This document shows, piece by piece, positions 41,787-50,347 of a stretch of 64,000 nucleotides of DNA. This stretch comes from Coxiellaceae bacterium (GTDB lineage: Bacteria; Pseudomonadota; Gammaproteobacteria; JAJRRL01), in the NCBI GenBank assembly GCA_044359385.1, contig JBIKMG010000001.1:13363-77362 (forward strand), in the 5' to 3' direction. The notes under the pieces were generated by a model, which saw only the letters and a list, made by a program, of their open reading frames with translations, did no database searches and had not been told where the DNA came from. Positions within the stretch are counted from its first letter, which is position 1. Every line of letters starts with the position of its first letter. Both the position numbers and the translations under genes were made by a program.

Positions 41787-41960
41787 TCAACCGTAAAAAT
41801 GTTCCTGCACCTGCTGCAAATTTAAAGTCTGTTGAGCAGGGTGTGAATGAACAAAATACCCGATAAAAAATAATAAAATTAATTTAAGAACAACAACAAG
41901 CATAATCTCACGAGAAAATTCAGAACGCTTATTTAAAAAGGTACGCAATCGACTAATCAT
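41787..41960 (-). CDS. Hypothetical 57-aa single-pass membrane protein, start overlapping the upstream small ORF's stop (ATGATTAG)
   Basis: MISRLRTFLNKRSEFSREIMLVVVLKLILLFFIGYFVHSHPAQQ...: a basic N-terminus followed by a hydrophobic helix. It is translationally coupled to the cydX-like ORF. Confidence 0.35.
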   Translation of the reverse strand: MISRLRTFLNKRSEFSREIMLVVVLKLILLFFIGYFVHSHPAQQTLNLQQVQEHFYG

Positions 41961-42045
41961 CGCCATCTTTATTCACCCATAAAGCTGTGCAGTATGCAAC
42001 AGATAAAGCAAGAATAACGGCGACACCTGTTATCAGATAATACAT
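41953..42045 (-). CDS. CydX-like small membrane protein (30-31 aa)
   Basis: M(M)YYLITGVAVILALSVAYCTALWVNKDGDD has the same length and pattern as E. coli CydX (MWYFAWILGTLLACSFGVITALAL...). A good Shine-Dalgarno sequence (AGGAG) lies 6 nt upstream. It is on the same strand as cydAB, downstream of them. Confidence 0.5.
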   Translation of the reverse strand: MYYLITGVAVILALSVAYCTALWVNKDGDD

Positions 42046-42351
42046 CATTCACTCCTAGGTGCTGTTCACATTAGCTGCGATATAACAGCGCAAGAAAAAG
42101 ACACCATTGATTCATCATTTCTTTTAAGTTTGTCGTATCGACGTTGTTCCCTAACTCCAATTCCTTTACAGTATCTCAAAATTCAGAAAAAGCGGCAACT
42201 TTATCGCATACCCAAACCTGTCATTGTCTTAAGCACGCGACAACCAATGATGCCTTCATTTTTTTGATGACTCGTTTTTCTACTCTGAATGTTCGGCCCT
42301 ACTGTTTTTTTATATCGTTGCATGAACGGATAGATATGACCTTACTTAACG

Positions 42352-47624: not shown

Positions 47625-48770
47625 CTAATAAAACGTATGTTTATTTTTCTCTAAGTCTTCTTCACCAATGGAATCAACACCATTCCAAGCAGCTTTAAAA
47701 GCAAACACTTTATAACACAAAATAATAACGAGCAATGCTCCTCCCACATAAAACATCACGTTTAACGCATACTGGCTAGATGCTGCATTCCAAACCGTCA
47801 AACTTTGAGCCCTGTTCGTGCTCGATGGCATCAAAAATGGAAATAAGGTAGCACCAGCCGTTCCAATAATACCCGCAACCGCTAATACACTTGACCAAAA
47901 GGCATAGTGTGCTTTTCGTAAGCGATTAAATAGCAAAGAAAAAAACAAAGCTGAAAAAGCAATGACCACAGGATAATATTTCCAAGGAGCAACAGAGTAG
48001 CCTGCCGTCCAAGAACCCATACTACTGGTTACAACATTGTCTAATGGGTGCAATGTTGGCTGAGCAGGTTGGCTGAGCAAAGTAAATCCGCTCACACGCG
48101 TCATTAACCACCAACCAGCTAGAATGAACAACATCGCTGTGATCCAGGTCAATACAAACTGAATTTTACGCGCCAATACCTGCAAATCCCCCCTTCCTCT
48201 ACGAGCAATCCATGCTGCACCGTGCATGACAATCATGGAAGACGATACCAACCCACACAAAATACCAAATGGATTCATTAAGCCAGCAAAATTACCGGTA
48301 TAAAATTCTTGCATGGTCTTTGGATCAAAATAAAATGGAACACCCTGCAACAAATTACCAAAAGTAACACCAAATACAATCACGGGCAGAAAAGAACTGA
48401 TAAAAAGACCCCAATCCCAAAAAAAACGCCATTTATGATTATCTATTTTATTCCGGTAATCATAACCCAATGGACGCAAGAAAAACGGCCACAAGATCAT
48501 CAGTATCGCAGCATAGAAACCTGAGAAGGACAAGGCATAAACAGCAGGCCATACAACAAACAACCCACCTCCAGCAAATACAATCCAAGTCTGATTTCCA
48601 TCCCAAGTCGGTCCACTCATGTTAAGAACCAATCGTTTATGTGATTCTTTTTTCAAGAAAGGGAGGATAATCGTAATACCCAAATCATAACCAGCTGTTG
48701 TCCCATACAACATCAAAACAAAACCAATCAATAGCCACCAAATAACTTTCAGAACCGAATAATCGAGCAT
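47625..48770 (-). CDS. cydB: Cytochrome bd ubiquinol oxidase subunit II
   Basis: 381-aa polytopic protein lying immediately downstream of cydA. Confidence 0.9.
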   Translation of the reverse strand: MLDYSVLKVIWWLLIGFVLMLYGTTAGYDLGITIILPFLKKESHKRLVLNMSGPTWDGNQTWIVFAGGGLFVVWPAVYALSFSGFYAAILMILWPFFLRPLGYDYRNKIDNHKWRFFWDWGLFISSFLPVIVFGVTFGNLLQGVPFYFDPKTMQEFYTGNFAGLMNPFGILCGLVSSSMIVMHGAAWIARRGRGDLQVLARKIQFVLTWITAMLFILAGWWLMTRVSGFTLLSQPAQPTLHPLDNVVTSSMGSWTAGYSVAPWKYYPVVIAFSALFFSLLFNRLRKAHYAFWSSVLAVAGIIGTAGATLFPFLMPSSTNRAQSLTVWNAASSQYALNVMFYVGGALLVIILCYKVFAFKAAWNGVDSIGEEDLEKNKHTFY

Positions 48771-48796
48771 TATTGATCTCCTTGAACGACAAAGTC

Positions 48797-50347
48797 CTAT
48801 TTTTCAAAATGGTAACGACCCGTATGCAATGAACTCGGGCCCATCCGTGCATACTTGAACATCAAAATTAACTCAATCACCAACAAACTAATATAAAAGA
48901 AGGTATAACCCGATAAACTAGTGATCACAGACTTTATGGGAACGTTGGATACTCCCATAAAGGTTGGTAAAATACCCTGAACAACCCACGGCTGACGCCC
49001 CATCTCTGAAATAATCCAACCACACTCTGCAGCGATATATGGCAACGGAATAAATACGAGCATGCACCATAATAACCAACGCGTGTGGAACGTATATTTT
49101 TTAAAAATACCGATAAACGAAAGCAAGGTACCTAAGAAAAATAAACCCCAGCAACCAATCATCATGCGAAATGCCCAAAACTGTACCCAAACCAACGGAA
49201 CAGCATGATGGGTTGTTTCTATAATTTGACTCTGTGTCACATTTTTAACGGTCGGATTCACTTTCATAACAAGGAATCCATAACCAATATCCTCACGATG
49301 CCGGTCAAAAATAGCCATCGTTGCTTTTGAATTATCGCCATCGCGTATTTTTTGCAGCGCATCATAAGCGACTATGCCGCTTTTAATCCGTGGGATCGTC
49401 TCTTGCTCAAGCTGCTTGATACCTTTAACAACCCCAGTGAGATTATGGTATTCAATCAAACTTAATAACCCAGGAATCTGAATTACAAAACGATTGCTTT
49501 GTGTTTTTTGATTTGGAATGGCCGTTAAAAACCAAGCAGACGGTGCTTTATGCGTTTCCCACTGCCCCTCCATTGCTGCCAAAGAGATAGGTTCATATTT
49601 CAATACCATCAACCCATTTTGGTCCCCAAAAAAAGCGACAGATAACATAGCCACCAAACCAAAACCTGCTCCGACTGCAAAAGACCGCTTTGCAAAAGCT
49701 ATATCACGCCCTTTTAATAGATAGTATCCACTAATGCCCATCACAAACACAGCACCCACACTAAAACCAGCAAACAGAACATGACCAATTCGAATCTGTG
49801 TAAAGGTATTCGAATACAATGCTAACATGCTCGTTAAATTCATTTCGACCGTTTTAGGATCAAAATAACTCGCGATAGGATGCTGCATCCATGTATTCGC
49901 TGCCAAAATATTCACAATAGATAAACTGGCACCAACGGCCATCAAGAGTGTAATCACAAAATGCGTTTCTTTACTCACGCGATCCCACGTAAAAAAAAAT
50001 AAACCAAACATCGTAGTTTCTAACATAAACGCGGTAATCCCTTCGATCGCCAAAATAGGACCGAAGCTACCACCAATTAAGCGAGAGAAATAAGCCCAGT
50101 TTTGACCAAACTCGAACTCTAACGTTATTCCGGTAATCACACCCATAGCGAAGTTAATCGCTAGCAGCTTCGCCCAAAATTTTGTCATATCTCGAAAGAC
50201 TTCACGCCGTGTTTTCAAATACAGCGCTTCCATCACAACCAAAATCCAAGTTAACCCTAACGTTAACGGTACAAAAAGAAAATGAAACATGGCTGTAAGG
50301 CCAAACTGAATTCTAGAAAGACTGACTAGAGCACTAGGTTCAAGCAT
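48797..50347 (-). CDS. cydA: Cytochrome bd ubiquinol oxidase subunit I
   Basis: 516 aa with a Q-loop and the heme-ligand region (GWIISEMGRQPW). Confidence 0.93.
   Translation of the reverse strand: MLEPSALVSLSRIQFGLTAMFHFLFVPLTLGLTWILVVMEALYLKTRREVFRDMTKFWAKLLAINFAMGVITGITLEFEFGQNWAYFSRLIGGSFGPILAIEGITAFMLETTMFGLFFFTWDRVSKETHFVITLLMAVGASLSIVNILAANTWMQHPIASYFDPKTVEMNLTSMLALYSNTFTQIRIGHVLFAGFSVGAVFVMGISGYYLLKGRDIAFAKRSFAVGAGFGLVAMLSVAFFGDQNGLMVLKYEPISLAAMEGQWETHKAPSAWFLTAIPNQKTQSNRFVIQIPGLLSLIEYHNLTGVVKGIKQLEQETIPRIKSGIVAYDALQKIRDGDNSKATMAIFDRHREDIGYGFLVMKVNPTVKNVTQSQIIETTHHAVPLVWVQFWAFRMMIGCWGLFFLGTLLSFIGIFKKYTFHTRWLLWCMLVFIPLPYIAAECGWIISEMGRQPWVVQGILPTFMGVSNVPIKSVITSLSGYTFFYISLLVIELILMFKYARMGPSSLHTGRYHFEK

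Follow-up and report, generated by a model that had tools for sequence, protein, structure and literature searches.

A giant SecA-like/OTU gene lies between cydAB and cydX-cydP of a once contiguous cytochrome bd operon in a Coxiellaceae bacterium

The 64,000-nucleotide stretch of DNA analysed here (the window) comes from an uncultured Coxiellaceae bacterium (GenBank assembly GCA_044359385.1, contig JBIKMG010000001.1, positions 13,363 to 77,362) and carries a cytochrome bd locus in which a giant accessory gene separates cydA and cydB from two small genes, cydX and cydP, all of them on the minus strand. The locus begins with cydA (48797-50347), encoding subunit I of the long-Q-loop (E. coli bd-I) type (Pfam Cyt_bd_oxida_I, E=3.9e-148), and cydB (47625-48770), encoding subunit II (TIGR00203 cydB, 363 bits). 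Behind the cydB stop codon come a left flank of 407 bp (47218-47624), the giant gene of 1621 amino acids (aa) (42352-47217; Pfam SecA_DEAD 3.5e-36, P-loop_SecA 1.9e-16 and OTU 1.4e-9) and a right flank of about 302 bp (42049-42351), at whose end lies the AGGAG site of cydX. There follow cydX (41953-42045; 30 aa from the second ATG, or 31 aa if read from 42048) and the cydP-like gene (41787-41960; 57 aa from the conserved ATG, or 59 aa if read from 41966), so that 5,576-5,579 bp lie between the cydB stop and the start of the small open reading frames (ORFs). A promoter-like site of the next gene, yhbY (TTGACA-16-TAAAAT, 41740-41767, 11 of 12 matches), marks the end of the cyd unit, and yhbY itself (41444-41713, minus strand; Pfam CRS1_YhbY 3.7e-23) is the conserved downstream neighbour that anchors the synteny.

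An initial annotation, made from the letters alone, had described this arrangement. All of its ORFs exist as it reported them, Pfam and NCBIfam recover the cydA, cydB, SecA and OTU domains, an AGGAG Shine-Dalgarno site does precede the 31-aa ORF, and the 57-aa length that it gave for the second small ORF fits the start inferred from orthologues. It had also called both flanks of the giant gene AT-rich, which is true of the 407-bp flank (GC 33.7%), whereas the 302-bp flank (GC 38.9%) is not clearly so against a window mean of 41.4%. Its expectation that the small ORFs would escape annotation was mistaken, as the 59-aa ORF is called in contigs L017, L033 and L034 and the 31-aa ORF in L018.

In every relative examined, cydX follows cydB directly. 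Scans with CydB of GTDB species representatives and of JGI metagenomes reached no further than 56% identity, the species representatives yielding Coxiellaceae, unclassified gammaproteobacterial metagenome-assembled genomes (MAGs), Cysteiniphilum and others, and relatives with 73-82% identical CydB came only from a large protein collection. Over the whole range of CydB identities (73-82%, 50-56% and 39-43%), the distance from cydB to cydX is 8-25 nt. The closer set (L032, L028/29, L030/31 and L036) shows cydB, 8-11 nt, a 30-aa cydX and an overlapping cydP of 57-58 aa; L035 has cydX 14 nt after cydB and L027 has it close behind cydB, both contigs stopping before the cydP slot. The distant relatives (L001, L004-L016 and L022-L025) all have an ORF in the cydX slot directly after cydB, a hydrophobic one of 30-60 aa that begins M-[WMFYTI]-Y and starts 15-25 nt behind cydB. 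The most telling contig is L032, whose CydB is 82% identical to that of the window. It reads lepB, a 134-aa gene, cydA, cydB, cydX, cydP, yhbY, ispB (on the opposite strand), rplU, rpmA and obg, with yhbY adjoining cydP, which is the gene order of the window minus the giant gene and therefore the empty site. Judged from this conserved order, the ancestral unit in the clade is cydA-cydB-cydX-cydP.

The borders of the insert follow from where homology ends. In blastn comparisons of the window with L028, L030 and L032, homology stops at the cydB stop codon (47625), and with L030 it starts again at about 42045, the start of cydX; neither flank of the giant gene finds a counterpart in these three contigs. 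The two breaks thus delimit an insert of about 5.58 kb (about 42049-47624), in which the giant ORF is the sole ORF of at least 100 aa. The initial annotation had suggested that the giant gene entered a once contiguous cydAB-cydX operon and that synteny should be compared; the contiguity in relatives, the empty site and the homology breaks strongly support that suggestion. The cydB-giant-gene junction recurs in five other contigs from different samples, so the arrangement is not an assembly artefact, and L017 and L018 cover the whole giant gene. The first 13 or so nt of the left flank (TAGAGGGTTTTTAC) resemble the cydB-cydX spacer of distant relatives, a stretch too short for testing. There are no terminal repeats around the insert, no tRNA within 29 kb of it and no structured RNA nearby. 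A target-site duplication (TAG+AGGAG at both junctions) and a duplicated cydB 3' end at the right junction were considered and rejected as being at chance level, with 258-970 of 2000 shuffles scoring equally.

Both small genes keep the junction that they have in relatives. In the window the cydX stop and the cydP ATG share letters (GATGATTAG), and the relatives show exactly this overlap (GATGATTAA). Because the overlap is the same, the true starts are likely the second ATG of each small ORF, which gives the coordinates adopted above. With these starts the two window genes overlap by 8 nt, and cydP is translationally coupled to cydX.

The cydX product (MYYLITGVAVILALSVAYCTALWVNKDGDD) is a membrane peptide with a single helix, its best 19-residue hydropathy window (mean 2.24) beginning at residue 4 and a charged tail closing its C-terminus, as befits a small protein with one transmembrane segment. 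With the 30-aa ORFs found behind cydB in L032 (MYYTIAAICVIISMAVGFCTALWVNKRCDD), L028 and L030 it shares 58% identity. A hidden Markov model (HMM) built from four close relatives finds it with E=2.5e-17, and one built only from 13 distant cydX-slot ORFs finds it with E=0.001; in both cases it is the best of the 859 ORFs of the window. The 14-member slot family aligns by hhalign with E. coli CydX in register from Met1, with a probability of 88% and a pairwise E of 2.8e-6 (a single pairwise comparison, no database search). By these matches, the 30-aa ORF is clearly the orthologue of the cydX-slot ORFs of the relatives. Against the published CydX motif, YxxWxxGx15[E/D] (PMC4325964), the 30-aa reading keeps Y3 and has T at position 6, A at 9 (with G at 7) and N at 25, where several of the relatives' slot ORFs retain D25. 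In some lineages CydX is known to vary too much for Pfam to recognise it (PMC4325964), and the Coxiellaceae/Legionellales-like branch as a whole escapes the curated CydX models, which match just one of the 14 cydX-slot ORFs of relatives (E~0.03). The oxidase itself is of the expected kind: the window CydA is 46% identical to E. coli CydA (510 aa, gap-free) and hence of the long-Q-loop type, the type that co-occurs with CydX (PMC4325964). The orthologues in L027-L032, L035 and L036 stand next to cydB with a long-Q-loop cydA, and the window copy stands 5.58 kb away.

The second small ORF is best regarded as a diverged CydP. Its 59-aa version carries a precomputed PF28236 CydP match in public gene calls, and four of its orthologues pass the NCBIfam model small_CydP (NF045611, curated cut-off 29.6 bits) with 41.6, 43.2, 42.6 and 30.6 bits. 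The gene is linked to cydAB(X) by running across the stop codon of cydX, as it does in the window, L028, L030, L032, L036 and L002/L023. CydP was named in the cydPABX operon of Burkholderia cenocepacia and reported as restricted to Burkholderiales (PMC9104464); in the window, cydP is downstream of cydX and not upstream of cydA as in that first description. A profile made from the gammaproteobacterial copies also retrieves, from a Sutterella contig, an ORF that precedes cydA (L016, 8144-8434) and scores 37.2 bits. A word-based homologue search with the 59-aa ORF recovered only itself. That the ORF might be a short YbgE was ruled out, with an hhalign probability of 1.8%. CydP-family genes follow cydX at L002:11248-11463, L023:3375-3590, L028:11243-11416, L030:11241-11414 and L032:6677-6850 and in L036; in other Coxiellaceae MAGs (L001, L004-L006), cydX is present and cydP is not detectable.

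The giant protein joins a SecA-like ATPase motor (aa 88-650) with GEGKT (Walker A) at 153 and DEVD at 254, both motifs intact, to a TPR at about aa 721-752, hydrophobic membrane segments at about aa 935-1031 (by hydropathy), a coiled region and an OTU cysteine protease domain at about aa 1441-1555. Its motor matches SecA in the PDB over residues ~90-625 (E=8e-55). All SecA equivalog cut-offs fail, the best model giving 252.8 bits against a cut-off of 862; only the motor residues ~40-585 of the model are covered and the C-terminal half of the translocase is absent, so we speak of a SecA-like motor and not of SecA. The OTU domain scores 39 bits in Pfam against a cut-off of 23.3, and compared with human OTUD3 (PDB match 6.8e-6) the C-terminus keeps the catalytic Cys and His motifs, DGDCYF at 1443 standing for DGNCLF and GAHY at 1553 for GEHY. 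Among bacterial proteins, the Lot-family OTU deubiquitinases of Legionella form a comparison group.

The sole full-length homologue of this protein, P0002, is 41% identical and has the same architecture; it lies in a different context, not beside cyd genes. The motor region has homologues within giant proteins of symbionts (Rickettsia, Orientia and Cardinium) and also in ciliates, rotifers and insects. SecA-like domains have been reported in Amoebophilus effectors, together with Otu domains (PMC3482391), and lfa2470 of Legionella fallonii, a SecA DEAD-like protein, has been listed among eukaryote-like proteins (PMC4256840). The giant protein is of the same type, being large and multidomain and pairing a SecA-type motor without the C-terminal half of the translocase with a protease of the ubiquitin system. 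It differs from these SecA DEAD-like proteins in that its full SecA-like/TPR/membrane/OTU architecture is shared only with P0002, and its role as an effector or deubiquitinase is putative, read from the sequence. SecA-like, membrane and OTU parts together are a domain combination of the eukaryote-like effector type, known from amoeba- and arthropod-associated intracellular bacteria, and we infer that the giant protein was horizontally acquired and is host-directed. The GC content at third codon positions (GC3) of its gene is 0.308, compared with 0.35-0.41 in nearby housekeeping genes, and is akin to that of the other giant ORFs of the window. There are three of these, all on the minus strand and all with low GC3 (0.29-0.35): 3738-8063 (1441 aa) with a histone-deacetylase domain, 14350-19692 (1780 aa) with a NUDIX domain and DUF2608, and 29948-33574 (1208 aa) without a Pfam match. 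They look like eukaryote-like or effector-type genes as well.

The giant gene is not intact throughout the species. Comparison of contigs revealed a conspecific allele, in L033 and L034, that lacks 4,601 bp (42957-47557, equivalently 42944-47544). On both sides of the gap the DNA of these contigs is 99.6-99.8% identical to the window, and the junction is identical in the two. It lies within ATC[G/A]AGAAGA, an imperfect direct repeat of 10 bp whose two copies stand ~70 bp behind the cydB stop and at codon ~1421 of the giant ORF. The deletion spares an OTU-only ORF of 196 aa that begins with TTG (L033:11147-12125 region), and cydX now lies 978 bp after cydB; cydX and cydP are identical in the full-length and the deletion alleles. 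Since P0002 has the same architecture from end to end, the full-length form must have come first. The giant gene, an accessory gene of eukaryote-like effector type, thus varies between strains; it is dispensable, and part of the population carries it in a decaying state.

As for expression, the left flank holds a weak terminator-like hairpin (47426-47441) after cydB and, further on, the AGGAG ribosome-binding site of the giant gene. The same flank contains a unique near-perfect palindrome (CACAATATATCCATATATTAGTG, 47383-47405, minus strand), ~165-190 nt upstream of the giant-gene start, which occurs once in the window against 0.01 copies expected by chance and could be an operator site. No convincing terminator was found after the giant gene, the fold z-scores being -0.7 (right flank) and -1.5. 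The only strong promoter in the area is that of yhbY, whose hexamers are the same in L032. Since all genes lie on one strand, with no convincing terminator or promoter in between, our most economical guess is that cydX-cydP are expressed by read-through from the giant gene or from cydAB.

We compared the two small proteins with those of relatives for signs of selection. For cydX and cydP the proportion of nonsynonymous differences (pN) is 0.21-0.25, against a proportion of synonymous differences (pS) of ~0.75-1.0, which is saturated and precludes an estimate of their rate ratio (dN/dS). The window has more lineage-specific singletons in CydX and CydP than any other lineage, 12 of 26 compared with 15 of 74 in CydB (Fisher p=0.02). 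L032, whose operon is intact, has a similar excess (9), so the faster evolution is not specific to the split and we make no claim of it.

We propose the following history, to which we give a probability of about 85%. The ancestor carried the operon cydA-cydB-cydX-cydP, with cydX ~9 nt after cydB and cydP overlapping the cydX stop. In the species of the window only, ~5.58 kb of foreign-looking DNA, comprising the giant gene and its non-coding flanks of 407 and 302 bp, then entered the cydB-cydX spacer. The small genes were left intact, with their ribosome-binding site and their coupling, and most likely are still made, probably from a read-through transcript, and still serve cytochrome bd. A conspecific allele has lost 4.6 kb of the unstable giant gene by deletion between short direct repeats. 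The comparisons establish the ancestral contiguity, the borders of the insert, the orthology of the small ORFs and the deletion allele, whereas the continuing role of cydX-cydP, their read-through expression and the effector role and horizontal origin of the giant protein are probable readings.

Several results weigh against this history. The insert has none of the hallmarks of a transposon, an insertion sequence or an integrative island, and mobile elements leave its route of entry unexplained; the compositional difference of the giant gene is mild. The 31-aa ORF of the window matches neither PF08173 YbgT_YccB nor TIGR02106 (Pfam and NCBIfam), even at E<=10, and three of the four CydX motif positions differ in the peptide. 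The initial annotation had itself proposed a search with the CydX models and named a lack of CydX family membership as grounds for giving up the insertion. For the curated HMMs that lack is what we find; it is outweighed by the orthology to the cydX-slot ORFs, the in-register hhalign alignment with E. coli CydX and the known variability of CydX (PMC4325964). The window CydP, too, stays below the NF045611 cut-off, with 23.2 bits (E=5e-5), which is ~19 bits under its three close orthologues (41.6-43.2 bits), and conserved positions are altered in it (IWYFFFSHPVQK to IGYFVHSHPAQQ). These changes may reflect relaxed constraint after the operon was split, although we do not claim relaxed selection. 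Lastly, the 302-bp right flank offers no convincing sigma-70-like promoter for cydX-cydP, and the synthesis of CydX and CydP after the split is assumed.

Among the alternatives, the one that fares best concerns what the giant gene does at this place. The initial annotation had offered co-option of the cyd promoter/terminator context as its other reading. The gene could have become a regulated member of the operon, its transcription starting with that of cydAB at the oxygen-responsive cyd promoter; a host-directed protein would then be made along with the microaerobic oxidase, with cydX-cydP at the 3' end of the mRNA. The common strand agrees with this, as does the finding that the weak hairpin after cydB is the only terminator-like structure, with none after the giant gene. 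We nevertheless consider it unlikely, given that the nearest homologue of the giant gene is not beside cyd genes, that the AT-rich 407-bp upstream region and the unique palindrome suggest a control of its own, and that the gene is dispensable in a conspecific strain. Bolder still, and quite unlikely in our estimation, would be a hybrid mRNA of ~10 kb from the oxygen-responsive cyd promoter that encodes the SecA-like/OTU protein and, at its far 3' end, the small subunits; in that case selection would have favoured the deletion allele as a partial return to the old state, with cydX-cydP again within 1 kb of cydB. A separate possibility is that CydP, found at two operon positions in two proteobacterial classes, would be a genuine, widespread fourth component of bd-I oxidases.

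A second alternative concerns the small ORFs, which might be decaying relics, cut off from cydAB transcription, with a cytochrome bd that works without them or poorly. The low CydP score of the window, which falls under the cut-off that the close orthologues pass, its leading number of CydX and CydP singletons and the lack of a detected promoter upstream of cydX would all fit such a decay. However, neither ORF is disrupted, the AGGAG site and the conserved stop/start overlap are in place, L032 is similarly accelerated with an intact operon, and pN is far under pS. Moreover, the small ORFs are identical in the deletion-allele strain, and other bacteria are known to carry orphan cydX genes (PMC4325964). 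We therefore regard decay as decidedly unlikely and hold to the insertion with both small genes retained.

It is very improbable that the split arrangement is the ancestral one and that the relatives lost the giant gene and re-joined cydB and cydX. Most of the giant gene can indeed be deleted within the species, but every relative has its 8-25 nt between cydB and cydX, an ordinary ribosome-binding spacer, at three depths of divergence, other orders and E. coli among them. The giant gene would have had to be excised precisely, and more than once, whereas the one deletion that we observe is not precise, 978 bp being left behind, and the spacers of the relatives bear no scars of the giant gene or its flanks. 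That a chimera of assembly or binning joined the giant gene to the cyd locus deserves practically no credence: the window is from an uncultured organism and its proteins occur only in metagenome assemblies, but assemblies made independently, from several samples and by several pipelines (Logan, JGI, ENA), have the same junctions.

The surroundings of the operon vary as well. In the window, 26 nt (48771-48796) separate cydA from cydB, compared with a 4-nt overlap in the relatives with 80-82% identity, and CydA is 10-18 aa shorter than theirs. Between lepB and cydA lies a 135-aa ORF (50420-50827, minus strand) whose product has a hydrophobic segment at the N-terminus and is assigned to no family; counterparts of 134-136 aa hold the same position in all close relatives, which makes it a conserved neighbour of the cyd operon. 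On the other side, the space between cydP and yhbY is occupied in L028 (11430-18466) and L030 (11520-18988) by an asnC-type regulator and leuA-leuCD-leuB, with an ilvE or AAA_14 gene. As this cluster sits after cydP, the cyd operons of the two contigs are intact. In the genome of P0127, different genes again (carAB, greA) follow cydB. Downstream of the cyd operon, this clade thus has a hot spot of rearrangement.

Set beside known systems, the locus resembles the cydA-cydB-cydX-ybgE operon of E. coli in its long-Q-loop CydA, its CydB, the single-helix peptide of ~30-37 aa that in the relatives begins a few nt after cydB, and a fourth small membrane gene coupled to cydX. It differs in that this fourth gene is CydP-like and not YbgE, in that the window peptide lacks W6 and G9 and has N for E/D at position 25, and in the 5.58-kb insert that parts cydB from cydX. 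With B. cenocepacia cydPABX (PMC9104464) it shares a small membrane protein of the NF045611 family linked to cydABX; there cydP is upstream of cydA, whereas in the Coxiellaceae/Legionellales-like clade it lies downstream of cydX and overlaps it, and the window copy falls under the curated cut-off. Orphan cydX genes away from cydAB are known, for example in Cellvibrio japonicus (Allen et al. 2014, PMC4325964), and the cydX of the window is likewise not adjacent to cydB. Here, however, the cause of the separation is visible, as the insertion of a single gene with the empty site in a relative, the two parts share a strand and are only 5.6 kb apart, and cydP accompanies cydX.

As an event, this is an ordinary lineage-specific gain of an accessory gene that splits an operon, which is unsurprising and leaves the understanding of these systems unchanged. 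Two minor additions come with it, namely CydP-like genes that close the operon at its 3' end in bacteria other than Burkholderiales, and a branch of CydX overlooked by the curated models. Its main interest is as a clean natural case of a respiratory operon with tight coupling into which an accessory gene has come, for which filled, empty and partly deleted versions of the site are all available, and which amounts to a natural experiment on whether cytochrome bd tolerates small subunits uncoupled from cydAB.

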